NCBI GenBank assembly: GCA_041651055.1
Contig: JBAZJW010000001.1
Span: 627,521-691,520 of the forward strand
DNA from: Minisyncoccota bacterium
Lineage (GTDB): Bacteria; Patescibacteriota; Minisyncoccia; Phycocordibacterales; UBA5272
DNA length: 64,000 bases
Reading direction: 5' to 3'
Part shown: in pieces, positions 18,786 through 55,314 of the stretch
Position numbering within the stretch: the stretch's first letter is position 1
Layout of the letters: each line of letters starts with the position of its first letter
Program-made: the position numbers and the translations under genes
Notes under the pieces: model-generated
The model's database searches: none
Told to the model about the DNA's origin: nothing
What the model saw: only the letters and a program-made list of their open reading frames with translations

Positions 18786-19205
18786 ATGTTATTCCCAAAG
18801 AAAGTAAAACACCGAAAGTGGCAAACAGCTCGTCTCTCAGAAGACAAGCTTAATCGTCCAGAAACACGCGGAGTAACCGTAGCGTTTGGTTCTTTTGGCC
18901 TTAAAGCTGAAACTCCTTCACGTATCGCCGCTAATCAAATTGAAGCTGCTCGTCGCGCAATGCAACGTCATGCCGGCAAGACTGCCAAGGTTTGGATTCG
19001 TATTTTCCCTGATCGTCCTGTTACACAGAAGGCAGCAGAAGTACCGATGGGTAAAGGAAAAGGAGATCCAGATCGATATGTATTCGAGGTTCGTCCAGGA
19101 CGAATTCTCTTTGAAGTGGACGGTATTCCAGAAGCACAGGCACGTGAAGCGCTTCGTAAAGCTGGATGTAAGCTTCCTGTTAAAACTCGCATTGTCACTC
19201 GTTAA
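18786..19205 (+). CDS. rplP: 50S ribosomal protein L16
   Basis: L16 pattern; operon position. Confidence 0.9.
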   Translation: MLFPKKVKHRKWQTARLSEDKLNRPETRGVTVAFGSFGLKAETPSRIAANQIEAARRAMQRHAGKTAKVWIRIFPDRPVTQKAAEVPMGKGKGDPDRYVFEVRPGRILFEVDGIPEAQAREALRKAGCKLPVKTRIVTR

Positions 19206-19211
19206 ATTTAT

Positions 19212-19460
19212 ATGAAAACAACACAAACAAGAAAGAAAATAACAGGGAAGGTCGTCTCAGATAAGATGGACAAGACTGTCGTCGTAAACACATCTCGTTA
19301 TGTCGCTCACAAGAAATACGGAAAGTATTTCAAGATCGACAAGAACTACAAAGCTCATGATGAAAATAATGAGTACAAGGTAGGGGATATGGTTATCATC
19401 GAAGAGTGTCGTCCACTTTCGAAGGATAAAAACTTCACCGTTCTTGGAAAGAAGGCATAG
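19212..19460 (+). CDS. rpsQ: 30S ribosomal protein S17 (immediately follows rplP; no L29 gene)
   Basis: ITGKVVSDKMDKTVVV...YKVGDMVIIEECRPLSKDKNF. Confidence 0.9.
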   Translation: MKTTQTRKKITGKVVSDKMDKTVVVNTSRYVAHKKYGKYFKIDKNYKAHDENNEYKVGDMVIIEECRPLSKDKNFTVLGKKA

Positions 19461-19898: not shown

Positions 19899-20174
19899 AT
19901 GCATCTAAAAAAAGGCGACAAAGTAATAGTGATTGCAGGAAAGGAGAAAGGAAAGTCTTCTGTAGTGACACAGGTTCTTCGTGAAGAAAACCGTGTTGTT
20001 TTGGAAGGTCTTAATATGATGAAGAAGCATATGAAGGCACCGAAGGCAGGGGAGAAAGGCGGTATCGTGAGTATTGCAATGCCGATTCATGCATCAAACG
20101 TAAAGCTTGCTGACAAAGACGCAAAGAAAGAAAAGCCAGCCGCAAAGGCAAAGAAAGCTGTTACAAAGAAGTAG
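19899..20174 (+). CDS. rplX: 50S ribosomal protein L24 with KA-rich C-terminal tail
   Basis: KKGDKVIVIAGKEKGK KOW motif; operon position. Confidence 0.9.
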   Translation: MHLKKGDKVIVIAGKEKGKSSVVTQVLREENRVVLEGLNMMKKHMKAPKAGEKGGIVSIAMPIHASNVKLADKDAKKEKPAAKAKKAVTKK

Positions 20175-20211
20175 TTAGGGGTTTGCAGTTAGGAGTTGGG
20201 AGTTGAAATAC

Positions 20212-20250
20212 AAAAGCGCGGTCTCTCGATCGCGCTTTTGTTTGCCCTTT
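20212..20250 (+). terminator. terminator hairpin; first copy of a ~40-nt direct repeat that flanks the inserted gene 20321-20974
   Basis: AAAAGCGCGgtctctcgatCGCGCTTTTGTTTGCCCTTT; compare 20978-21018. Confidence 0.6.
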
Positions 20251-20320
20251 ATGCTTGCAAAACAAGCTTCAGGTAGGTAGGATGTGATGGGTTCTTTATC
20301 ACACTGTCCTAGGAGGGCAT

Positions 20321-20974
20321 ATGAGCATTCTGAATGGCTTCACACCGCAGACAAGAATTGGTCGTGTTTATCAACCAGGATTTCAATTCGACAATCACCC
20401 TTTCTTCGTCAGGACTTTGGAGGAAAAGGATGGAAATCCTCAGTCACCCACTGTGAATTTTTTCAACGGGGAAGGTTGGGAGGAAATTTTTCGTGGCAGT
20501 CTTCCTGCGAAGGTTGTAACGCTTCTGCTTGAGTGTTCGGTCACAGAGCAAAAGCGTTATGAAAGCTACAAGAATAATCCGACAGGAGAATACCGGCCGT
20601 ACAGAGGGCATGGTCCGGCCATGCGGGCCATCTCCCTCCTTTTTATTGCTTTAGCATGCCTTCTTCTTGGGTTGATCGTCACAGCAGTTCTTCTTGGCTT
20701 CGGGCCATACAAATCAATCCTTGTTGGAGTGTTAACGCTTGCGCTTTTACTGTGGCTCCCCAGTGTTTACTTCCGTGTCACCTCAAAAATCCTCAACAAA
20801 AAATTTGCACAAATTTTCGTTGACTATATGAAGTGTGACAAGTCCTTAAGGGGTAAACAGGGGGAAGTTGTCGCCGTTTTGCGCAAGGTGGAACTTTTGT
20901 GTAAAAATCAAAAGAGAGCAAATCTTGCGACTGTTGTGGATGTGGAAAAAGAAATCCTTCGCCTTCTGAGGTGA
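20321..20974 (+). CDS. hypothetical membrane protein (two predicted TM helices); inserted between rplX and rplE
   Basis: 217-aa ORF. Hydrophobic stretches AISLLFIALACLLLGLIVTAVLLGF and ILVGVLTLALLLWLP. GC content visibly above the flanking r-protein genes. No similarity recognised. Confidence 0.55.
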   Translation: MSILNGFTPQTRIGRVYQPGFQFDNHPFFVRTLEEKDGNPQSPTVNFFNGEGWEEIFRGSLPAKVVTLLLECSVTEQKRYESYKNNPTGEYRPYRGHGPAMRAISLLFIALACLLLGLIVTAVLLGFGPYKSILVGVLTLALLLWLPSVYFRVTSKILNKKFAQIFVDYMKCDKSLRGKQGEVVAVLRKVELLCKNQKRANLATVVDVEKEILRLLR

Positions 20975-20977
20975 AGA

Positions 20978-21018
20978 AAGTGCGCGGTCGAGAGACCGCG
21001 CTTTTGTTTGCCCTTTGT
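20978..21018 (+). terminator. terminator hairpin; second copy of the flanking direct repeat
   Basis: GTGCGCGGTCgagaGACCGCGCTTTTGTTTGCCCTTTG. Confidence 0.6.
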
Positions 21019-21075
21019 TGCAGAAAAGAGTAGGATTATTGTGTCGTTCCGTTAGTTTTTTGTTTATTTCCCGAA

Positions 21076-21687
21076 ATGGGAGAAAGGTTGGTTGCAGTCA
21101 TGACTTTTATCCTACCGCCACAAAGCGACAGTGATTATCCAGTACGAATGCTCGGCGCCATTCAGTCGGCCTGCGACGCCATGTCAGACGGCAAGCAGAT
21201 TCTTTTCGAGAAGGATCTCTCTGACTACTTCACTGCGCAAGAGCTTTTCCACATGCTTTGGGATATGCAAAATAGGACTGAAGCTCCTCGCGGCGATGAT
21301 TGTCTGGCTCCTCCAGATCCTCTGTACCATAGGGCCCCTGTTCGGAAGGTTGTTGGGAAGGTTCTTCAAGGAGAATGTCCGCCTTCCTGTGAGAATGATG
21401 AGCAGCGCGCCGAATGGTTCATGGGTATTCTGAACTCCTGCGTTCTCTATGAAAAGTTTTGGACCCGGACAACCGCTTATGTCACAAGCATGAAGGAAAT
21501 CGACCTGGGTGTTGATATCGGGGGATACAGCCAACCGGTCACCGTTCTGTTCGACTCCGAGAAGACAGGCCAAAACGCTCGCCCCATCGCGGAGCGGGTG
21601 GTCAAAAAGCTTTTGGACGCGGTGACTGCTCACGTGGAGCAGTATTTGAGAGATGTGTACACCTACCCACAAAGTCCTGCGCCCTGA
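21076..21687 (+). CDS. hypothetical protein (higher GC; start may be the ATG at 21103)
   Basis: 203-aa ORF with CTG/GCG/CGG-rich codon usage unlike the neighbouring genes; no recognisable domain. Confidence 0.5.
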   Translation: MGERLVAVMTFILPPQSDSDYPVRMLGAIQSACDAMSDGKQILFEKDLSDYFTAQELFHMLWDMQNRTEAPRGDDCLAPPDPLYHRAPVRKVVGKVLQGECPPSCENDEQRAEWFMGILNSCVLYEKFWTRTTAYVTSMKEIDLGVDIGGYSQPVTVLFDSEKTGQNARPIAERVVKKLLDAVTAHVEQYLRDVYTYPQSPAP

Positions 21688-21861
21688 TTTCGGGCAGGCA
21701 TCAACAAGGCGACGTCTCACAGACGGCCGCCTTTTCATTTTGTCTTTTTTATGGTAGATTATGAGTCTATCAACTAACGCGGGAATATCCGCAAGCTAAG
21801 CAGCGTATAACGTTCCGACAGGTATATCCTCAAGAACCAATCGTACTTACAAACAAAGTAT

Positions 21862-22422
21862 ATGGCTAAAACAACAGCAATAAAAAGTATTAAAGAAGTA
21901 GAGAAGGAAGCATTCGAAACCCTTGCAAAGGAATTTGGATACAAGAACAAAATGGCTGCACCTCATCTTGTGAAGGTTACTATTTCTGTTGCGACAGGAT
22001 CAGCAATGAAGCGTGACAAGAAGTTCAATGATCTCGTTATGGATCGTCTTATGAAAATCACAGGACAGAAAGCGACTGTACGTAAAGCAAAGATGTCTGT
22101 GGCGTCATTTAAGACACGTGAAGGGGATCCAATCGGTGTCGCAGTAACACTTCGTGGTGCTCGTATGTTCGGATTCTTGGACAAGGTATTAAATGTATCA
22201 CTTCCACGTACAAAGGACTTCCGTGGTCTCAACCGTACATCGGTGGACGCTATTGGAAACATGACATTCGGTATCAAGGAACACACTATTTTCCCAGAAA
22301 TTCACGATGAAGAATTGAAGGATGTGTTCGGTATGGCTATTACAATGGGGACGACAGCTAAGACAAAAGAAGAGGCGACTAAGTTTTTCGAATTGATCGG
22401 CATCCCTTTCAAGAAACAATAA
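21862..22422 (+). CDS. rplE: 50S ribosomal protein L5
   Basis: ...GFKNKMAAPHLVKVTISV...DFRGL...GIKEHTIFPEI. Confidence 0.95.
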   Translation: MAKTTAIKSIKEVEKEAFETLAKEFGYKNKMAAPHLVKVTISVATGSAMKRDKKFNDLVMDRLMKITGQKATVRKAKMSVASFKTREGDPIGVAVTLRGARMFGFLDKVLNVSLPRTKDFRGLNRTSVDAIGNMTFGIKEHTIFPEIHDEELKDVFGMAITMGTTAKTKEEATKFFELIGIPFKKQ

Positions 22423-22634: not shown

Positions 22635-24032
22635 ATGAAAACAGTAATTATCAAAGGCTTTGTAGCATTGGGGGTTTTGGGGATTATGGCTCAAACAGCA
22701 ACATCATCGTTTGCTGCGTATTTCAACACGGATTCAATTCCTCGTTGCGATGTTCAAATTATCAATACATTACAAGTTGGTTCTGAAAGTAAAGAGGTAT
22801 ACGTTCTTCAGTCGCTTCTTTCACGAGCAGGATACCTTTATGCAACACCAAATGGTTATTTTGGTTTTGCGACAAAGTCTGCCGTTAAAAGTTTCCAGCG
22901 AGACAACGGTGTATATGCCACCGGTTCTGTTGGTCCAATGACCTTAAATGCAATAAACGAGCGTCTTTGTGATGCTGATGTACGAGGAGACATGCTTTCA
23001 TACACTGGTTATGGATATTCTTCATACAACGGCTATTCATCAGGCGTTACGTACGTTGATGCTTTCGATCCATACGTTCGCGTCGTCTCTCCGACTCCTG
23101 CAGTCGCTACCGTATTCGGTAATCCTCCTACAACCACAACGCCTGGAACATTTACTCCTTCAGGAACGGTTCCGGTTTCTATTCCTGCACTCACAACAGG
23201 GACATATTCAAACACCACAAATTACTCAACAATTCCTGCTACCACAAATACACAGATTGCTAGTACGAATGTCATTTACAATCCTTCAGCTGGATACACC
23301 TACGGTATCGTTCCACAGTCTGGTGTATTGACTATTCTTACACCACTTGCAAACAGTGTTTACAATGAAGGTGACACTGTGACACTCTCATGGACAACAA
23401 GTAATCTTACGGTTACACAGTACCAGATTCTTCTTGAAAATAAATCAACAAATCAGTCAAAGGTTGTTGCTGTTACGTCGACAAAGAGCGCATCATTTGT
23501 TCTTACAAAAGAAGTTCTTGATGCCGTATGTTCTGGAGCGTGTGATAACAATAACGTCGGATCCTTCCGCATCGTTATTGCGACACCTATTGTTGATATA
23601 GCGGGAACTGTATCTACATTCCGTGCTGCTATTTCACCGATTACGATTAACCGTCCATATACGACATTTGCCAATGTAGGAATCACAGGAAGTAAAAACC
23701 CTGTTAATTCCGGAGAAGCTTTTAGACTCTATGTAAGTGTGCCAACACCTGTGTACAATTACACACCAAGTTACAATCAGTATTCATTCAAGATTCGTGC
23801 TGTATGCATCAACAATGTTCAGGTGAGTATTGCAGGTGTGCCATGTGGTCAGGATTTTACAATGCCTGTCACATCAGCATATTTCCAGCAAGAAATTCCT
23901 GTTATGATGACGAACACAACATGGTATCGTCAGAATATTTCCTTCGAAATTAATGCCTTCACTTCTACAGGGCAACTCGTAGGTACTGCAAGTACAACAG
24001 TAAGTGTTAACCCTGCACCATTTGCTTGGTAA
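22635..24032 (+). CDS. secreted protein with N-terminal PG-binding-like domain; inserted between rplE and rpsN
   Basis: Signal peptide MKTVIIKGFVALGVLGIMAQTATSSFA; C.VQIINTLQVGSESKEVYVLQSLLSRAGYLYATPNGYFGFATKSAVKSFQRDNGV...C. Confidence 0.75.
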   Translation: MKTVIIKGFVALGVLGIMAQTATSSFAAYFNTDSIPRCDVQIINTLQVGSESKEVYVLQSLLSRAGYLYATPNGYFGFATKSAVKSFQRDNGVYATGSVGPMTLNAINERLCDADVRGDMLSYTGYGYSSYNGYSSGVTYVDAFDPYVRVVSPTPAVATVFGNPPTTTTPGTFTPSGTVPVSIPALTTGTYSNTTNYSTIPATTNTQIASTNVIYNPSAGYTYGIVPQSGVLTILTPLANSVYNEGDTVTLSWTTSNLTVTQYQILLENKSTNQSKVVAVTSTKSASFVLTKEVLDAVCSGACDNNNVGSFRIVIATPIVDIAGTVSTFRAAISPITINRPYTTFANVGITGSKNPVNSGEAFRLYVSVPTPVYNYTPSYNQYSFKIRAVCINNVQVSIAGVPCGQDFTMPVTSAYFQQEIPVMMTNTTWYRQNISFEINAFTSTGQLVGTASTTVSVNPAPFAW

Positions 24033-24271: not shown

Positions 24272-24457
24272 ATGGCAAAAACATCAACAATTGCACGTAG
24301 CAAGAAGACGCCAAAGTTCTCGTCACGAATAGTAAACCGATGCTTCAAATGTGGTCGAAAGCACGGATTCATGCGAGATTTCGGTCTATGCCGAACATGC
24401 TTCCGCGAGCTTGCGAACGAAGGTATGATTCCAGGTATTAAGAAATCGTCTTGGTAA
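24272..24457 (+). CDS. rpsN: 30S ribosomal protein S14, type Z (zinc-binding)
   Basis: 61 aa with CxxC...CxxC ([20 protein letters not shown]). Confidence 0.92.
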
Positions 24458-25405: not shown

Positions 25406-25756
25406 ATGAAAACAAACATCAAAACAGAAAAGCGAGTACGTCTTCACAAGAAGATTCGTTCTCGCGTGTCAGGGACAGCGGAACGTCCACGACTTGCTAT
25501 CTTTCGTTCAAACCGCTACATGTATGCGCAGCTTATTGACGATGTTCGTGGGATAACACTCGCGTCAGCATCTGATATTTCTTTGTCTGACAAAATGACA
25601 AAGGTGCAGCGTGCGAATACTGTCGGCAAGAAACTTGCTGAAGAAGCAAAGAAAAAAACTATTACTGCGGTCGTCTTTGATCGTGGCGGGTTCTCGTACC
25701 GTGGTCGAGTAGAGGCATTAGCAGATGGCGCACGCGAAGGTGGCCTTATGTTCTAA
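25406..25756 (+). CDS. rplR: 50S ribosomal protein L18
   Basis: [20 protein letters not shown]... Confidence 0.9.
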
Positions 25757-25769
25757 GCCAAATAACTAT

Positions 25770-26495
25770 ATGTCAGAAGAAATAATCACAACAGAAGAAG
25801 TAGTCGTGGCACCAGAAACTATAACAGAACCAGTCGTTACTCCTACATCTACCGAAACCGTAGCGACAGGAAACGTTGCTGTGGCACAAGACCGTGAGTC
25901 ACGACCAGTTCGTGGTGCTCGCGGTGGACAGTCACAAGGGCGCGGTGGTAAACCGGGAGGACGACCAGGAGCTAGACCTCGTGCTCCACGTGAGAAGCCA
26001 GAATTTGATAGTAAAACTATCAGTATTCGTCGCGTAACTCGTGTGGTTTCAGGTGGACGTCGTTTTACACTTTCAGTAGCGCTCGTTGCTGGAGATCATA
26101 ATGGACGTATTGGACTTGGAACAGGAAAGGCACTCGATACGCAAGTCGCTATCGAAAAGGCACTCAAGGCTGCAAAGAAGAACATGTTCACAATCAAGCT
26201 TTCAAAGACTAAATCACTTCCTCATGATATTGATGCGAAGTTCAAGTCTTCACAGGTGATGATTATGCCGAACAAAGGACGTGGACTCATCGCCGGATCA
26301 TCAGCTCGTACCATTTTGGCACTTGCGGGATTAAACGATGTAACTGCAAAGTTCTATTCAGGTACAAAGAACAAGCTTAACAATGCTCGTGCGACGATGG
26401 CTGCTCTACAGCAAATCGCGTACGCTCACGGTGAGGCTCCTGTTGCTGCTACAAAAATAGGGGGAGAGGAACCAGTGGTAACTCCAGTAAATTAA
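25770..26495 (+). CDS. rpsE: 30S ribosomal protein S5 with Thr/Glu/Val- and RGG-rich N-terminal extension
   Basis: RVTRVVSGGRRFTLSVALVAGDHNGRIGLGTGKA... S5 core; start at ATG 25770. Confidence 0.9.
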   Translation: MSEEIITTEEVVVAPETITEPVVTPTSTETVATGNVAVAQDRESRPVRGARGGQSQGRGGKPGGRPGARPRAPREKPEFDSKTISIRRVTRVVSGGRRFTLSVALVAGDHNGRIGLGTGKALDTQVAIEKALKAAKKNMFTIKLSKTKSLPHDIDAKFKSSQVMIMPNKGRGLIAGSSARTILALAGLNDVTAKFYSGTKNKLNNARATMAALQQIAYAHGEAPVAATKIGGEEPVVTPVN

Positions 26496-26505
26496 TTAAA
26501 CGACT

Positions 26506-27069
26506 ATGCAAATACATGAAATAAAACGCGTACACGCGAATAAGAAATCAAAGCTCGTCGGTCGTGGAGGAACACGTGGTAAGACTTCAGGTCACGGAGG
26601 AAAGGGACAGACTGCTCGTGCGGGACACCGTGTCCGCCCAGCTATGCGTGACATCATCAAGAAGCTTCCAAAGTTGCGTGGACATGGAAAGAACCGATCA
26701 GTTTCAGTATTCTACCGTGGCCCAGAAGCAGTGGTGAACGTCGGTGTGCTTAATGTCTTCAAAACAGGAGATGTGGTAACACCTACAGCACTTATTGCAA
26801 AAGGACTCATCGGTGAATCTTTTGGAAAGAATCCAAAGGTAAAGATTCTCGGAAATGGTGAACTTACTGTCGCTCTTTCATTCGAACGATGTGATGTTTC
26901 AAAGACAGCACAAGAGAAAATTGAAAAGGTGGGAGGAAAAGTAACTGTTGAAGTTAAACCAAAACCACAGTCAGATGAACAGTTGAAGAAAATTGCTGCC
27001 AAGAAAGCTGAAAAGCTTGCGAAGAAGGCAAGTAAGAAGGGAGGGAAGACTGCTCCTAAGAAGAAATAG
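26506..27069 (+). CDS. rplO: 50S ribosomal protein L15 with KA-rich C-terminal tail; follows rpsE directly (no L30)
   Basis: GRGGTRGKTSGHGGKGQTARAG pattern. Confidence 0.9.
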   Translation: MQIHEIKRVHANKKSKLVGRGGTRGKTSGHGGKGQTARAGHRVRPAMRDIIKKLPKLRGHGKNRSVSVFYRGPEAVVNVGVLNVFKTGDVVTPTALIAKGLIGESFGKNPKVKILGNGELTVALSFERCDVSKTAQEKIEKVGGKVTVEVKPKPQSDEQLKKIAAKKAEKLAKKASKKGGKTAPKKK

Positions 27070-47853: not shown

Positions 47854-48762
47854 TTAACCCCTAACTTGGCCCACTAGTAGGTACGATTTATAGGTCTCGA
47901 TATATTTCATGAAGCGTTCATAATCTTCCGGCGTTGTCATGGCATCATGTGTCGTATCAGTGAATGTTGTATTCGTGAGTCCGATGATGTGAGCTTTCTT
48001 ATTCATTTGTTCTGTAAAAGCTTTCTCACCAAGTGCTTGTGCATACAGTTTGTTTACCTCGGTATCACCAGAAAATAATTGCGGTATAAGTGTTTTTCTT
48101 GTCGTCGTGCTTATACCGTCCATGCTTAGTATCTCATTATCTTGTGTTAAAAATTCAAGCGAGATAGTGGCAACCATAAGCCTTGTCATTACGTCACTTG
48201 AAATCGTAGGAGTTGTGGTGGCAGAAGGGGAAAAATCATCATCACCTCCGCGCGTAATAATAATGGGCATACCTCTTGTGATGAAGTCATACACTCGACG
48301 GGCGTCATCATCTTCGAGACGGATACACCCTCCACTGTAAGTGCTTGAGACTTTTGTTCCGTCTGGATAGTATGGAATACCGTGAATAAAGTAATTGCCA
48401 AAGAGATGCACACTATAAGGCATATAGACATGGCCAATAGAACTAAAATGAAGAGCTTCTTTGTAGTCGCTCACATAGCTCCCCCCAATAGTTTCATAGT
48501 AGCTACCAGGTTTTCCTTGAGAGACAAGAGGAATGGTTGCGAGTGTTGTTGTTCCATCGCGAAGATCAAGGGTCATACTATCTAAATGAATCAATACGTA
48601 ATTCCCTACGTGTTGTGGAGCTGGTATTATTACTTCGCTCTGAGGCTCTGTGTGTATTTCTGCTTCTCCTATATTCGGAGTAAAGAGGTACCAGGCGCTA
48701 CTTATGAAAAGAAGAACGAAGAGAAATGAGAGGGTGATGTATCCGGGAGTGAAATGCTTCAT
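47854..48762 (-). CDS. L,D-transpeptidase (YkuD domain) with N-terminal membrane anchor
   Basis: Catalytic signature FIHGIPYYPDGTKVSSTYSGGCIRLEDDDA (HG...S.GC.R); start placed at MKHFTPGYITLSFLFVLLF (internal Met of the longer 47854-48873 ORF). Confidence 0.75.
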   Translation of the reverse strand: MKHFTPGYITLSFLFVLLFISSAWYLFTPNIGEAEIHTEPQSEVIIPAPQHVGNYVLIHLDSMTLDLRDGTTTLATIPLVSQGKPGSYYETIGGSYVSDYKEALHFSSIGHVYMPYSVHLFGNYFIHGIPYYPDGTKVSSTYSGGCIRLEDDDARRVYDFITRGMPIIITRGGDDDFSPSATTTPTISSDVMTRLMVATISLEFLTQDNEILSMDGISTTTRKTLIPQLFSGDTEVNKLYAQALGEKAFTEQMNKKAHIIGLTNTTFTDTTHDAMTTPEDYERFMKYIETYKSYLLVGQVRG

Positions 48763-48898
48763 AAGAGCTTCGACTATACCATAAAAGTGGATAATCCTCC
48801 ATCTGTGAGGTGTAGAAGGCTGTATACTAAAGGTACCTTTATATGTCGAATATAAAGGTGTATATATACACACTTTATTTCTAGTTTAGAACTCTCTT

Positions 48899-49567
48899 AT
48901 GTTATTAAATCCAGTCGATATTTTGGGGAATGCACTTGTAGATACAAGTCTTACGCTTGCAGCCTTTCTTCCTAATGTCATCATCGCAGTTATCATCTTC
49001 GCTCTTGGATGGGCGTTTGGTTCTGTATTAGGACGTGCAGTTTCTCATCTTATTACCGTTCTTCGTATTGATAATGCGCTTCACAAAGCTGGAATGGATG
49101 CAGTGAGTGAACGTGCCGGTGTAAAGGTTAGTCTCGCAGGTTTCTTGGGTGGCGTTATCAAGTGGCTTGTTATCGTGGCATTCACGGTTGCATCAGCTGA
49201 GATACTTGGACTCACACAGGTTACGCAACTTCTTCGTGATATTCTCATGTACATTCCGCAAGTGATCATTGCGTCTATTGTCCTTGTTATTGCGATGCTT
49301 GTTGGAGACTTCGTCGCTCGTCTCGTGAAGCATTCAGTGAAGGCGACAGGAATGAAAGGGGATTTCGCGGCCCAGGTTGCAAAGTGGGCAATCATCATCG
49401 TAGGTGGTGTATTCCCAGCGCTTACACAGCTACGTATTGCTTCAGGTCTCGTGGAAGTTCTTTTCACTGGTGTGGTGTTCGCTATTTCGCTTGCTCTCGG
49501 TCTTTCATTTGGACTAGGAGGACGTGACGCAGCAGCTCGTGCTATTGAGAAAATGAAGGCACAGTAG
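48899..49567 (+). CDS. integral membrane protein with repeated TM_helix-like units (MscS-N-terminal-like)
   Basis: 222 aa, 5-6 hydrophobic helices; repeated ...A..G..L..V..L.....I.. units. Confidence 0.45.
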   Translation: MLLNPVDILGNALVDTSLTLAAFLPNVIIAVIIFALGWAFGSVLGRAVSHLITVLRIDNALHKAGMDAVSERAGVKVSLAGFLGGVIKWLVIVAFTVASAEILGLTQVTQLLRDILMYIPQVIIASIVLVIAMLVGDFVARLVKHSVKATGMKGDFAAQVAKWAIIIVGGVFPALTQLRIASGLVEVLFTGVVFAISLALGLSFGLGGRDAAARAIEKMKAQ

Positions 49568-49621
49568 TTGGGGACAGTGTAAAGGCGAGAGTGTAAAGTT
49601 TAGAGGAAACACCAACACTAG

Positions 49622-49652
49622 AGAAAAGCGCCCTGCCGGGCGCTTTTCTCTT
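49622..49652 (+). terminator. rho-independent terminator
   Basis: GAAAAGCGCCC-TGCC-GGGCGCTTTTCTCTTTG. Confidence 0.7.
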
Positions 49653-49783
49653 TGCTTTTTCACCTATTGACAAATATCCCCAGTATGGTATACTGGAAAC
49701 TGTCGACGGTGGCTAATTAGCTTATGGGGCACGGGTTCGTGTTCTGGGGTTAAGGTGCACTGTATCTTTACGAGGAGATCGAC

Positions 49784-50257
49784 ATGAAGCTCTTGAAAAA
49801 CATTTTGTTGGCTGTCATGGCCATCGCGTTGGTTTCGTTGTTGGCCGCTTGCGGTGAACAGAAGTTCACGACTGATGAAGTCTTGCGGGTCAGTGAAAGC
49901 GCGGCCACCCGTGCGGCTGCGGACGCCAAAGCTCTCGAAGCCTCCAAGGCCGATGCAAAGTGGGTCCGCGCGCGCTCCGAGCTCCGGCAAATGGGTGCTG
50001 TCACGGCAGTCACTGGCAAGTTTTTGATCACCGACAACTGCAAGGTGAAACCGGACGGCTTCACGCAGTTGCAAGCGAACAAGGACTTTCCGAGCACCGC
50101 CTTCACCGAGTTCAACGCCGGCTGCACCAGCAAGGTGTACGCCATGAAGGCCGAACGTGATAAGGCGAAAAATCGCAACGTTCCGGCCGAGCGCAGGACT
50201 GTCGCTAAAAAAGCCGCCGCCAAGCAGCACGTGGCCCAGGCCAATCTGCGGCGGTGA
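49784..50257 (+). CDS. GC-rich lipoprotein (likely horizontally acquired)
   Basis: Signal peptide with lipobox MKLLKNILLAVMAIALVSLLAACGE. Local GC far above the window average (GCG/GCC/CGC/CTG codons). Precedes the rRNA promoter. Confidence 0.6.
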   Translation: MKLLKNILLAVMAIALVSLLAACGEQKFTTDEVLRVSESAATRAAADAKALEASKADAKWVRARSELRQMGAVTAVTGKFLITDNCKVKPDGFTQLQANKDFPSTAFTEFNAGCTSKVYAMKAERDKAKNRNVPAERRTVAKKAAAKQHVAQANLRR

Positions 50258-50412
50258 CTCAACCGCCCCGTGCCGCATACGCGGCACCCCAAGACCCCAA
50301 AGATTAACCATCTGCGGGGCCTTTTTTATTGTCTATTTTCAGTATTCATAGTAGGTATTTGTATGAACCTCCTAACTCCTAACAGTAAGCCTCTAACTTG
50401 TGCTTAAAGTGC

Positions 50413-50441
50413 TTGACTTTCAATTCTCATTTTGATAGTAT
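50413..50441 (+). promoter_or_regulatory. rRNA promoter TTGACT-17-TAGTAT with TG extension
   Basis: ttgact ttcaattctcattttga tagtat; ~290 nt upstream of the 23S 5' end. Confidence 0.55.
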
Positions 50442-51228
50442 GTGAATCACTGCTTGATGATAAAAAACGAAACTATAACCAACTAACCCGGAGGCCAAGT
50501 AACGTTTCGTTACTAGCCGCCGATAAGGCGGATTTTATTTTCTCAAAATTGTTAAGCAGATTGCAGTTCTCTGACAACAGAATCCCGTGCACAACACGCG
50601 CAACAGTACTGTTATCCAGTAGTAGAATTTGATTCACTGGGGTCTAGCGGAGTTTGTGACACGGACACATGAAAAAAGACAATACATGTAGAGAGCGGAG
50701 CGGTCCAATCTCTACAGTGATAGTTATGTTTCCTAATAGGAACATAAGAGCACACGGTGGATGCCTAGGCTCTAAAGAGCGATGAAAGACGTTGTCAGGC
50801 TGCGATAAGTTTCGGGGAGGCGCCTAACAGCCCGCGATCCGGAAATTTCTGAATGAGGAAACTCAATGCGAGTAATGTTGCATTGTCATAGCAAGCATTT
50901 GCATGACGCTCACCCAGGGAAGTGAAACATCTCAGTACCTGGAGGAAAAGAAAATAAAAATTATTCTGCAAGTAGCGGCGAGCGAAAACAGAGAAGCCCA
51001 AACCGACAGTAGTAATACTGTGCGGGGTAGTAAGATAGAAACGTAGTTTACTAGAAGAGTTACAAAAGGTATGTATAGATAAAGTTGTTGGAAAGCAACG
51101 CCAAAGAAAGTGATAGCCTTGTTATCGAAATGCATACCCCTCTTTTGTTTCTAATCTTGAGTAATTCGAGACACGAATAGCTCGGATGAATCAACCGGAA
51201 CTAACCGGTAAGGCTAAATATCTTTAGA

Positions 51229-51274
<46 letters not shown>

Positions 51275-52690
51275 GGAAGGGGAGTGAAATAGAACTGAAA
51301 CCGTGTGTTTACAAGGAGTAGAAGAGGGCGCATCACACTGTGTGTGATGCCTTTAAACATTTAAATATTTAAATGTGCATCACGCTTAGCGTGATGCGTC
51401 CTCGACTGCGTGCCTATTGAAGAATGAGCCAACGAGTTATAGGTTACTGCAGGCTAAGTGGTATAAAGTCACGGAGCCATAGCGAAAGCAAGTGTGAATA
51501 GCGCGAACAAATTGTAGTAGCTTATAGACCCGAAGCCGAGTGAGCTTACCATGAGCAGGGTGAAGTTTATCGAAAGGTAAATGGAGGCCCGAACCAGTAG
51601 GTTGTACGACTCCTTTGGATGACTTGTGGTAAGGAGTGAAAAGCTAATCGAACTCGGTAATAGCTGGTTCTCTCCGAAATAGTTTTTGGACTAGCGTCGC
51701 GTGTTCCCTTTGGGGGTAGAGCACTGGAAGGTTTTGACTAGTAGCAATACGGCAACACCTATCAAACTCCGAATACCAAAGGTTAAAAATGCGGCAGTAA
51801 GACCACGGGGGCGAAGCTCCGTCGGTCAAAAGGGAAACAGCCCAGATCTCAAGTTAAGGCCCCAAAGTATATATTAAGTGTAAGCGAGGAGGTGGAGTTT
51901 CATTGACAATGAGGATGTTGGCTTAGAAGCAGCCATCATTGAAAGAAAGCGTAACAGCTCACCCATCGAGAGACTCTGCGCCACAAATAATCGGGACTCA
52001 AATATATCGCCGAAACTGAGGGCTTCATTGGTGTCACAACCATTGGAGCGGTAGGAGAGTGTTCCACTCTGCGTTGAAGCTAAAGGGGTAACCCATAGTG
52101 GAGCGTGTGGAAGTACGAATGTTGGCACAAGTAACCGCAATGGGGGTGAGATCCCCCCACGCCGAAAGAATAAGGTTTCCTATTCAATGATTGTCAGAGT
52201 AGGGTTAGTCGGGCCTAAGGAGATGGCGAATGCCGGATCCGATGGACATAATGTTAATATTCATTAACTCGGTACTAATGTGATGGGATGACGGAGTGTA
52301 GTATATAGAGCGACTTATTGGATTGTCGTTTATTGCGTAAGGGTGAGGTACAGGGAAATCCGTACTTCTGGTTTTAATGCCGACTCCAAGCGTTGTATGA
52401 AGATGATGGGCAACCTGATTCAACTCTATAAAGCACGCTTCCGAGAAAAGTCTCTACATCTGATGCATATCAGACGTGCGCATCGCAGAGCGATGCTTGA
52501 AATTTAAATATGTAAATATTTAAATTTCACATCACTAGGTGATGTGCATGCTTAAGTTAGTATTGATCCGTACCGCAAACCGACACAGGTATTCAGGTCG
52601 AGTAGACCAAGGCGAACGAGTGATATCTCCCTAAGGAACTAGGCAAAAAAGCGGCCGTAAGTTAGCGATAAGGCCTGCCCTCACCACTTT

Positions 52691-53143
52691 GCGTTTAAAG
52701 TCGCAGTGACAAAATTACTTCATCTACTTTGTCGCAGCATCGTTTTTGTCAGTCGCCGTACTATATGTACGACTTCTTCCAAAAGCTCGCTGCTTCTCGT
52801 AGCTAAAGCAATTTTCTCACTGCTTGCAAAAGTGGAGAGTTCTAGGAAATTAGATAAAATATTGAGACAAATCGTAATTACAGTAGAGCTACTGTAATTA
52901 CAAAAACATGTGTAATACGTAAGTAATTGTGGATTTCGTGAAGGAAATGTATGGACCGCGGTAGGTCTGCATCGAGATTTAAGAATCCGATGTGGTGGTG
53001 GCGTTCGACTCGCTATTATTTCATACGTGGACTTCCGGGAAGGTGACTTCCCGTCTTTCACGAAATTCATAATTACAAACTAATTACATACAAAATAGTG
53101 TGATGGAAATCAGTTTCCTCGAGCTCTTCATTACTTTGAAAAT
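52691..53143 (+). other. ~453-nt insertion at the tip of 23S helix 63 (IVS/expansion; non-coding)
   Basis: Flanking stem ctgccctcaccacttt (52675-52690) pairs with aaagtggtgggggc (53144-53157). E. coli has ~40 nt here. No credible ORF. Contains copy D of the 90-nt hairpin repeat. Confidence 0.7.
52715..52820 (+). repeat. copy D of the ~90-nt hairpin repeat family, embedded in the 23S helix-63 insertion
   Basis: TTACTTCATCTACTTTGTCGCAGCATCGTTTTtgtcagtcgCCGTACTATATGTACGACttcttccAAAAGCTCGCTGC... Confidence 0.65.
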
Positions 53144-53303
53144 AAAGTGGTGGGGGCCGCAGCGAAAGTTTCCCTAGCGACTGTTTACCAAAAACACAGC
53201 TTCCTGCGAACACGTAAGTGGATGTATAGGAGGTGACGCCTGACCAATGCGGGAAGGTTAAATATCGGTGGTAATTTATTGCTGGATGATATAAGCCCCC
53301 GTC

Positions 53304-53536
<233 letters not shown>

Positions 53537-54201
53537 AGCGAAATTCCTTGTCTGGTAAGTTCAGACGTGCACGAATGGCGTAACGACTGGGGAACTGTCT
53601 CAGGGAGTAGCTCGGTGAAAATACAGTACCGGTGAAGATGCCGGTTACCCGCAGATAGACGAAAAGACCCCGTGAGCTTTACTCTAGCTTGATATTGAGT
53701 ATGTTCAATTACTGCGTAGCATAGTGACGAGAGGTTTGATGTGTATGGTTTCGGCTGTACTCTACTCGACAGTGAAATAGTCATCTGTAATTGGGCATAC
53801 TCTAACGTGAACGGAAAAAACGTTCGCAGACAGTATCTGGTGGGGAGTTTAACTGGGGCGGTTTCCTCCTAAAAGGTAACGGAGGAGTTTATTAAGGTCA
53901 TCTAGGCGCGAATGGAAACCGTGCCGATAGCGTAAGGGCATAAGATGGCTTGACTGTAAGACGGGCATGTCGAGCAGACACGAAAGTGGGACCTAGTGAA
54001 CCTACACTACGCTTTAGACGCGGGTGCAGATTAACGGATAGAAGCTACCACGGGGATAACAGGCTAGTTGTGCCCAAGAGTTCATATCGACGGCACAGTT
54101 CGGCACCTCGATGTCGGCTCATCTTATCCTGGTGGTGGAGAAGCTACCAAGGGTATGGCTGTTCGCCATTTAAAAAGATACGTGAGCTGGGTTCAAACCG
54201 T

Positions 54202-54683
54202 GGAGGAGTGAATTATACAGAACGATTACTAACGTTATTTTCTCAAATAACATCAGTTAGCAATCAATTCAGTTTTGTATAATTGACTTCTCCTAGTTTG
54301 AACCCGAGGAGTTAAGACTAAACTTAACAAAAAGACATTAATCACGGCGGCATATATCAGTAATGGTATATGGCAAGCCAACTAATATCGGAAGAATCTT
54401 ACTCGAGCAATCGAAAGACAATTCCGAGGGAAGTATTATAGATTTTTTTGGTGAGGGGAGATTGGAATATGAGTGGATCCTCTGCGCGAGCAGTCAGGGT
54501 AACCTCGACCATAACTAATGGTCCTTCCTACCTTTCCTCACCTCTCCTAAAGAATCTAGAATACACCCGTAGAGACTATACGTTGGCAGTCTTGTTAAAA
54601 ACAAGATGAAGCTCTAGTCCGATCCCTTTAGAAATAAAGGTTCTCATGGTTTGGAAACCACAATGAGATGTAAAACACTAATG
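54202..54683 (+). other. 482-nt insertion in 23S domain V near E. coli position ~2590-2595 (GAACGU^CGUGAGACAG); putative ORF-less group I intron
   Basis: Removing 54202-54683 restores gttcaaaccgt|cgtgagacaggttggt. 5' exon ends in U, insert ends in G. No ORF inside. Confidence 0.55.
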
Positions 54684-54736
54684 CGTGAGACAGGTTGGTT
54701 TCCTATCTTCTGCGGGCGTTCGAATATTGAAAAGAT

Positions 54737-54767
<31 letters not shown>

Positions 54768-55208
54768 TGACCTCTGGTGTGTGGGCTCTGACGCCAGTCG
54801 GAGCGCCCAGTAGCTATGTCGGGAATGGATAACTTCTGAAAGCATCTAAGAAGGAAGCCAACTTTAAGATAAGTATTCGTTGAAGGGTCGTAAGAGATTA
54901 TTACGTTGATAGGAGCTAGGTGTACGCACAGTAATGTGTTTAGCCAAGGCTTACTAATTACCCGAATCCTATTAGGAAACATGACTAGCACAAAAGGCTA
55001 GTTAGCGTATGGAGCACTAGTTGTCTACTAGAAAGTTTCATACTGTATTGTCTTTCATGTGGTGTGTGGAGGTTGCATGTTCTTACATTAATACTTCGGT
55101 ATTAATATAAGTCACGTGACTTCCACACACCACAGGAAAGAGTTCTTTTTTCATGTGTTTGATTCTGTATGGCTTGTAAAAGCGATACAAATAACTTGAA
55201 TGGTATAT

Positions 55209-55314
55209 GGAACCGTAGCTCAGCTGGTAGAGCCCTAAACTAGTCTTGAATAAAGATGAGTTTCTTGGGATTCTTAATCCAGGTGCGCAAGTTCGAATCT
55301 TGCCGGTTCTGCCA
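55209..55314 (+). tRNA. tRNA-like gene between 23S and 5S with ~30 extra nt in the anticodon/variable region (anticodon unresolved; possible short intervening sequence or class-II-like arm); CCA encoded
   Basis: GGAACCG-TA-GCTCAGCTGGTAGAGC (acceptor + D arm) ... GCAAGTTCGAATCTTGC (T arm) ... CGGTTCT-G-CCA. The 50 nt between the D and T arms cannot be folded into a canonical 17-nt anticodon arm. Confidence 0.5.

Follow-up and report, generated by a model that had tools for sequence, protein, structure and literature searches.

Organization of the rplX-rplE region

The region described here lies within a 64,000-nt stretch (the window) of the 775-kb contig JBAZJW010000001.1, which belongs to a metagenome-assembled genome (MAG) of Candidatus Paceibacterota, a lineage within the candidate phyla radiation (CPR). 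In its cluster of ribosomal protein (r-protein) genes, the distance from rplX to rplE amounts to 1687 bp. An earlier inspection of the letters and open reading frames (ORFs) without database searches, referred to below as the sequence-only reading, had described this spacer as 1.7 kb of non-ribosomal DNA with two genes, and Pfam searches and ORF calls agree on this point. The upstream border is formed by rplX (uL24; 19899-20174; Pfam ribosomal_L24 and KOW), apparently the last gene of an upstream r-protein transcription unit and 57-88% identical to its counterparts in relatives. The downstream border is rplE (uL5; 21862-22422; Pfam Ribosomal_L5 and L5_C), which would be the first gene of a downstream unit. 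The spacer holds five features, all of them on the + strand like the two bordering genes: a predicted intrinsic terminator of rplX (T1, 20210-20250), ORF1 (20321-20974), a second predicted terminator (T1', 20982-21016), ORF2 (21100-21687), and a terminator-like hairpin with a T-tract (T2, 21706-21745). T2 overlaps the -35 element of a putative rplE promoter (21733-21761), which was recognized by alignment with a sequence block of the clade and is followed by a conserved, structured 5' leader of rplE (21762-21861; alignment, RNAalifold, and covariance model R1).

ORF1 encodes an orphan protein of 217 aa, preceded by the Shine-Dalgarno sequence AGGAGG 6 nt ahead of its ATG. Hydropathy analysis places two hydrophobic stretches near aa 97-125 and aa 130-153, in agreement with the two transmembrane (TM) helices that had been proposed. 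The 203 aa assigned to the second protein correspond to a start at ATG 21076. The ATG at 21100, which is annotated by NCBI and at which the homologs begin as well, is the likelier start and yields 195 aa. The two proteins show no similarity to each other, and an origin of the pair by tandem duplication was rejected. The order rplX-ORF1-ORF2-rplE-PG_binding is found at 100% identity on a MEGAHIT contig from ENA (212 kb) and on a Logan contig (9 kb); with two independent assemblies in agreement, the locus is no assembly artefact.

The duplicated terminator

The first inserted gene had been reported to be bracketed by two copies of a repeat, and this proved correct. The repeat comprises 35 nt (copies at 20216-20250, within T1, and 20982-21016, identical in extent to T1'); 30/35 positions are identical, among them the whole of the final 20 nt. 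The copies are spaced 766 bp apart and flank a segment of 731 bp with a single ORF, so that ORF1, and not ORF2, is enclosed. Beyond the 35 nt, the likeness of the two copies is not significant. The suggestion to look for the same repeat elsewhere gave a largely negative answer: no extra copy with up to three mismatches occurs in the window (chance expectation 0), and the repeat is absent from 90 related loci. A metagenome scan with the 20-nt tail returned one match within an unrelated GC-rich ORF, which was rejected as a chance match within a GC-rich coding region.

Both copies fold into hairpins. T1 consists of GCGCGGTC-TCTC-GATCGCGC followed by TTTTGTTTGCCCTTT (-21.8 kcal/mol), and T1' of GCGCGGTC-GAGA-GACCGCGC with a 15-nt tail identical to that of T1 (-20.1 kcal/mol). 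T2 is less stable (-14.3 kcal/mol). The T-tract reads TTTTGTTTG after T1 and T1' and TTTTCATTTTG after T2, and the hairpins start 42, 8, and 19 nt past the stop codons of rplX, ORF1, and ORF2, respectively. All three thus combine a stable GC-rich hairpin with an adjoining T-tract soon after a stop codon and are predicted to act as intrinsic terminators; T1' was additionally picked up by a terminator consensus scan. A match to the Rfam family MicX at 20201-20299 (24 bits vs a gathering score of 75) reflects only the terminator and was discarded.

The near identity of the two copies, which fold alike, upholds the proposed duplication of the rplX terminator, and near-identical copies with inverted loops indicate duplication rather than independent origin. 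The 4-nt loops TCTC and GAGA are mutual reverse complements, and the two hairpins differ at one position if one of them is inverted and at five if both are read directly, which suggests that a loop was flipped within the palindrome after the duplication. Since the rplX terminators of three relatives (L005, L008, and L034) have similar GCGCGAC stems (AAAAGCGCGAC...GTCGCGCTTTTG), copy 1 is apparently the ancestral terminator of rplX.

Base composition and codon usage

The region has a GC content of 48.7% (window mean 42.6%) and ranks in the top 1.5% of 1.5-kb windows. This regional signal comes mainly from ORF2, whose GC content at third codon positions (GC3) is 0.57 (z ~3 vs 54 other ORFs) and whose synonymous codon usage is the most atypical among 53 genes compared. 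The rplF entry of that comparison was read in a wrong frame and is disregarded. The GC3 of ORF1 is 0.46 (z ~1.3-1.4), not significant alone. A GC-rich codon usage biased to CTG, GCG, and CGG had been noted for the insertion; the compositional statistics set ORF2 apart, and not ORF1. Both ORFs show a coding-like excess of GC at first over second codon positions (GC1 > GC2), with the order GC1 > GC3 > GC2 in ORF1. The codons CTG, CGG, and AGG are used in ORF1 and ORF2 and absent from 17 r-protein genes, a contrast that is inflated because the r-protein genes themselves are strongly biased.

An antisense ORF of 184 aa inside ORF2 (21184-21738) is not conserved in the homologs and was rejected as a gene, being a by-product of high GC. 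The sole other stretch of the window as GC-rich as the rplX-rplE region (up to 52% GC) is found at 48700-50700. It contains a gene resembling those of mechanosensitive channels (48899-49567) and, on the minus strand, an ORF of 215 aa (49664-50311; GC 0.57) for which Pfam gave no match, immediately upstream of the 23S rRNA gene.

A variable slot between rplX and rplE in related genomes

A scan anchored on rplE, with one genome per species and mapping by tblastn, provided 80 loci for comparison. Among close relatives (rplE at least 78% identical, n=31 with both genes), the spacer ranges from 128 to 5263 bp, with an uncertainty of roughly 100 nt in the gap lengths, which were taken from tblastn alignment ends. 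Eleven of these genomes have about 400 bp or less and no ORF of at least 60 aa, and 19 have spacers of 0.8-5.3 kb in which between one and five ORFs lie, in either orientation. In distant relatives (rplE at most 67% identical, n=33), rplX and rplE are adjacent (-3 to 267 bp). For several relatives of intermediate distance rplX lay outside the fetched upstream DNA, and in six (L038, L040, L041, L043, L046, and L050) it is no longer within ~6 kb of rplE.

The contents of the slot are as variable as its length. The 46 spacer ORFs of at least 60 aa in relatives form more than 20 clusters and are little shared between genomes. They include surface proteins with PG_binding_1 domains in varied architectures (7 loci), NrdR (3), T2SSE ATPases (2), an AAA_28 ATPase, and many proteins without an assigned function. 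A scan of 20 representative spacer ORFs revealed neither an integrase nor a transposase. The same two core genes thus flank differing genes across related genomes, as in a turnover hotspot, and the variation in size and content indicates a clade-wide variable slot rather than a site that was disturbed once in the genome of the window. This disagrees with the single two-gene insertion that had been assumed. One slot (L006:1808-4114) contains a tandem duplication of a gene for ~300 aa, with a downstream region of 63 nt that is 95% identical between the copies, which implies that local duplication also shapes the slot.

A second seam may exist further downstream in the cluster. A PG_binding_1 protein of 465 aa (22635-24032) is encoded between rplE and rpsZ (24272-24457), a homolog 45-63% identical occupies the same place in nearly all close relatives, and the distance from rplE to rpsH varies from 2.2 to 5.6 kb among relatives.

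The putative rplE promoter and the structured leader

Both borders of the slot carry conserved signals. A predicted terminator, composed of hairpin and T-tract, immediately follows rplX in nearly all close relatives. A promoter/leader block ahead of rplE is common to every close relative and the window; it takes the form TTTACA-N17-(TG)-TAGAGT, GTCTAYTA, a variable hairpin that is not always present, AAGCGACGTATAACGT, another hairpin, and CCAATCGTGCTTAC. The corresponding elements in the window are a -35 sequence TTTTCA (21733-21738), a spacer of 17 nt, and a TG-extended -10 sequence TAGATT (21756-21761), for which, judging from their sequence, promoter function is putative. The terminator after rplX together with the promoter and leader of rplE indicates that rplX ends one transcription unit and rplE begins another. 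The sequence-only reading had seen a footprint of horizontal acquisition into a highly conserved operon. This is not supported: throughout the clade, the junction is a predicted boundary between transcription units.

The leader shows a conserved, covarying structure in the 5' untranslated region (UTR) of an r-protein operon. RNAalifold analysis of 30 distinct sequences (alignment A3) pairs AAGCG.CG with CGTGCTT around an inner helix. In total, 96% of the cells are paired and 5/10 pairs are changed on both sides; the covariation score was reached by 0/500 shuffles, and slid controls were paired to 25-44%. The covariance model R1 built for this structure scores 92.5 bits in the window (match 21750-21864). 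It finds exactly one match per locus, always just 5' of rplE, in essentially every locus of the close clade for which that DNA is available, including loci outside the training set. Below ~75% rplE identity no match was obtained, bar one marginal case (L039, rplE 72%). The leader (present just 5' of rplE in L001-L037, L082, L085-L088, and L090) occurs only in the clade whose rplX and rplE genes lie apart. Searches of Rfam gave no family for it at E-values up to 1 and none at the gathering score. Its structure and position make it a candidate for a new r-protein autoregulatory RNA.

The ORF2 family

A word-indexed protein search with ORF2 returned the window protein only. An exhaustive HMMER search of 1.84 billion representative proteins revealed seven real homologs (P0003-5 and P0007-10; 179-205 aa) with 24-43% identity, the best being just 43% identical. 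An eighth candidate (P0006; 820 aa, six matching stretches) was rejected as a low-complexity tandem-repeat protein. The family profile picks up ORFs in the loci L004, L007, L009, and L027. Upstream of rplE, ORFs of 159-168 aa also occur in L008, L017, and L024; L008 is a borderline case (E 0.006 in a database of 48 sequences), and for L017 and L024 a relationship to the family could not be demonstrated. A profile search with alignment A1 in a database of 5.8 billion proteins retrieved the window, L009, and L007 proteins only. Searches of PHROGs, PADLOC, NCBIfam, PDB sequences, and phages (tblastn) gave nothing credible, and a match to Hax3 was a repeat-sum artefact without a passing stretch.

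Members of the family share the motifs DxxYP, RxPVW, E(E/Q)RAEWFQ, and DxExTGKxA. AlphaFold2 with a 9-sequence alignment produced a model of ORF2 with pLDDT 77 and pTM 0.73 (the prediction without an alignment, at pLDDT 40, was of no use). ORF2 represents a small, fast-evolving family of predicted cytoplasmic helical bundles.

An ORF2 homolog lies directly upstream of rplE or its leader in L004, L007, L009, L027, L082, L085/86, L087/88, and L090, i.e. in at least eight other lineages (at least nine with the window). The order in L090, with rplX, a terminator, the ORF2 homolog, and the leader, is that of the window minus ORF1. In L007, L009, L027, L082, and L008, the ORF2 homolog or candidate is followed, as in the window, by a hairpin and T-tract just ahead of the rplE promoter. 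At rplE identities of 83-92%, the neighboring family members share 27-57% identity, and the two loci with the most similar ORF2 proteins (L004-L085, 57%) likewise have the most similar rplE (92%). The rplE coordinates of L087 were out of frame in this comparison. The pattern fits vertical descent with very fast divergence.

Compared with host neighbors, the GC3 of family members is raised in most hosts (z 3.0, 4.3, 3.6, 1.9, 1.4, and 1.2; ~0 in two hosts) and is hence a recurrent trait of the family. The same gene at the same place in other lineages, mostly with the same raised GC3, contradicts the proposal that ORF2 was newly acquired by the genome of the window. One member outside the rplE context (L089:935-1852) adjoins a gene with an HMUDK_hel domain (the helical domain of 5-hmdU DNA kinase). 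This domain is associated with phage DNA hypermodification, and the context of this member may be mobile or phage-like.

ORF1 as a probable lineage-specific addition

The homology searches recommended for the two proteins yielded a family only for ORF2. Among 5.8 billion proteins, ORF1 matched itself alone; no credible match was obtained in Pfam, PHROGs, PADLOC, NCBIfam, PDB sequences, or phages (tblastn), and the gene is absent from the 90 related loci. A viral match in L092, limited to a 36-aa TM segment and a single 8-mer seed, is not meaningful, and no meaningful phage or viral relatives were detected for either ORF. ORF1 is the only candidate for a recent insertion at this locus. Of the pair for which a horizontal insertion had been postulated, only ORF1 still fits a lineage-specific insertion, as an orphan that is flanked by repeats and absent in relatives (its composition alone being no argument for a foreign origin). 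The simplest reading sees ORF1 as a lineage-specific addition between the rplX terminator and ORF2. With a near-normal composition and a total lack of relatives, the gene may be of external or of local origin.

Evolutionary interpretation

The architecture of the locus, its conservation, the homologies, the composition, and the terminator folds described above point to a boundary between two transcription units that serves as a gene-turnover slot, in which ORF2 is a long-standing resident and ORF1 a lineage-specific gene. This account is considered likely. Concerning the activity of the signals, the order of events, and the route taken by ORF1, we infer the following. In a clade of Paceibacterota, the r-protein cluster would have been split after rplX into two transcription units, such that rplX stops at its own terminator and the unit opened by rplE is headed by a separate promoter and the structured leader. 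The intervening DNA would turn over, with length and content becoming specific to each species; such a slot may be tolerated because genes between the terminator and the promoter would be insulated from both units. The ORF2 family would have resided for long directly upstream of the rplE promoter. On arrival, ORF1 may have duplicated the 35-nt terminator, leaving each gene with one, and the hairpin loop of one copy would have been flipped later. The slot of the window would today consist of two independent single-gene units, each with its own terminator.

Several observations weigh against this account. No integrase, transposase, or terminal inverted repeats that would explain the insertion of ORF1 were found at the spacer; 35 nt is long for a target-site duplication, and a terminator duplication comparable to that of the window was seen in 0/14 relatives. 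The GC3 of ORF2 is well over that of its neighbors in several hosts, and a long-resident, vertically inherited gene should have ameliorated. Repeated exchange between lineages, or a recombination-linked GC bias at the slot, may lie behind this trait. Some family members (L081, L083/84, and L089) are not beside rplE or the leader in the available DNA, with some contigs too short to tell. Furthermore, the relatives are different species represented by MAGs, to which the stated uncertainty of the gap lengths applies, and the promoters and terminators are all predictions.

A local origin of ORF1, by de novo emergence or by extreme divergence of DNA already in the slot, is regarded as unlikely; the second terminator would then stem from local duplication or gene conversion. 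Such an origin is in line with the absence of ORF1 homologs from the 5.8 billion proteins, the 90 related loci, and the phage and viral collections, with a GC3 and codon usage within the spread of host genes, and with a repeat unique to the locus apart from the lone tail match. However, an ORF of 217 codons whose Shine-Dalgarno sequence is strong, whose two TM helices are clean, and whose GC content follows the coding-like order GC1 > GC3 > GC2 has the appearance of a mature gene, and a related non-coding precursor was seen in no relative. Moreover, CPR diversity is poorly sampled, which makes missing homologs weak evidence.

A further proposal is held to be unlikely. The rplX/rplE boundary might be an evolved insulated module made up of a clade-specific terminator, a new promoter, and the previously undescribed leader, which would be a feedback site for an r-protein (e.g. 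S8 or L5). The ORF2 family, located directly upstream of this leader in at least nine lineages, might be functionally tied to it, for instance as a regulator or ribosome-associated factor, instead of being a passive occupant.

It is very unlikely that the 35-nt repeats are attL/attR scars of a decayed integrative or cassette-like element that targeted terminator hairpins and left ORF1 behind as cargo. Direct repeats do flank a segment of 731 bp with a single ORF, the repeated unit is a hairpin, and the reverse-complement loops suggest recombination or template switching in a palindrome. Yet no integrase or transposase is encoded in the spacer or among the scanned spacer ORFs of relatives, no extra copy of the unit exists in the window, the 90 related loci, or the metagenome scan, and such brackets occur in 0/14 relatives. 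With regard to integron cassettes, the stem of 8 bp is too small for an attC site, the loop has 4 nt, the GTTRRRY core is absent from the repeat, and Pfam searches disclosed no integrase in the spacer. Features of transposons or insertion sequences are lacking at ORF1 as well, with no transposase domain, no terminal inverted repeats beyond the hairpins, and a duplication of 35 nt.

A similarly low probability is assigned to the model of the sequence-only reading, i.e. one recent horizontal transfer of a higher-GC two-gene cassette into an intact rplX-rplE operon at the rplX terminator or by its duplication. The regional GC content, the atypical codon usage of ORF2, the codons in both ORFs that are missing from the r-protein genes, and the direct repeat were the signals that spoke for it. 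These are countered by a repeat that flanks ORF1 alone, by ORF2 homologs at the same position in at least eight other lineages, by a terminator/promoter boundary that exists at the junction clade-wide, and by the non-significant composition of ORF1; in addition, protein, HMM-library, and phage/viral searches found neither a donor nor a mobility gene.

Finally, an assembly chimera joined at the shared short repeat, conceivable as the genome is a MAG and the insert has a flanking repeat, has a negligible probability given the two fully identical contigs, an exact repeat of only 20 nt (probably below the final k-mer size of these assemblers), and the support from relatives for the position of ORF2.

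With the turnover slot as the favored account, the locus illustrates that the interruption of a nearly universal gene order is not necessarily the mark of a recent foreign insertion, and that GC or codon anomalies beside r-protein genes should not be read as horizontal transfer without a check of synteny. In a CPR clade, the spc cluster appears to have been re-cut into two transcription units, with the seam now a tolerated slot for gene gain and loss. The comparison also adds a new small protein family (ORF2-like) and an orphan membrane protein to CPR annotation and exposes a candidate for a new ribosomal leader RNA; gene regulation in this phylum is, to our knowledge, essentially uncharted. 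None of this amounts to a major change in current understanding.

Other features of the window

Elsewhere in the window, a 23S rRNA match (50734-54976) spans 4243 nt, compared with 2925 nt of the model, implying one or more insertions of ~1.3 kb in all; Pfam gave no match for ORFs of 110-136 aa located there. Rfam calls a tRNA of 103 nt (55209-55311), far longer than a normal tRNA, between the genes for 23S and 5S rRNA, and ARAGORN reports no tRNA anywhere in the window; this tRNA may contain an intron or be otherwise unusual. No 16S rRNA gene was found in the window. In the r-protein cluster, rplP and rpsQ are separated by 6 nt (18786-19460), with no rpmC (L29) ORF listed between the two and the gene apparently absent; likewise, rpmD (L30) is missing between rpsE and rplO (25725-27069). 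The absence of L30 is known for CPR bacteria.

Comparison with known systems

T1, T1', and T2 resemble Rho-independent terminators in having GC-rich hairpins and T-tracts directly past stop codons. What sets T1 and T1' apart is that they are near-identical, lie 766 bp from each other, and carry inverted loops.

Hotspots of horizontal gene transfer that are flanked by core genes and devoid of mobile elements have been defined within species pan-genomes (Oliveira et al., 2017; PMC5635113). The slot shares with them the same two core flanks, a changing content (at least 20 families), and the lack of a recognizable mobile element; the comparison made here differs in being between species-level MAGs, with one genome per species.

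The breakup of the conserved r-protein cluster is described as a two-step process, in which the operons initially take up a small number of genes between them and become fully disconnected afterwards (PMC8046335). Similarly, a few unrelated genes lie here between parts of the cluster, and rplX is not within ~6 kb of rplE in six relatives. In contrast to that process, the break falls inside the spc operon of the Escherichia coli type (rplN-rplX / rplE...) and not between canonical operons, and the seam has a predicted terminator, promoter, and leader that are all specific to the clade. CPR bacteria, to which the present host belongs, were outside the scope of that study.

In Escherichia coli, S8 exerts repression of the spc operon at a structured mRNA segment overlapping the rplE start (PMC3616713). 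The leader described here is likewise an RNA structure immediately 5' of rplE, and the downstream unit includes rpsH, the gene for S8. However, it forms a 5' UTR instead of a site internal to an operon, and, to the extent tested, it is related to the S8 site neither in sequence nor in fold. As a hypothesis only, the leader might be a functional analogue of that site.

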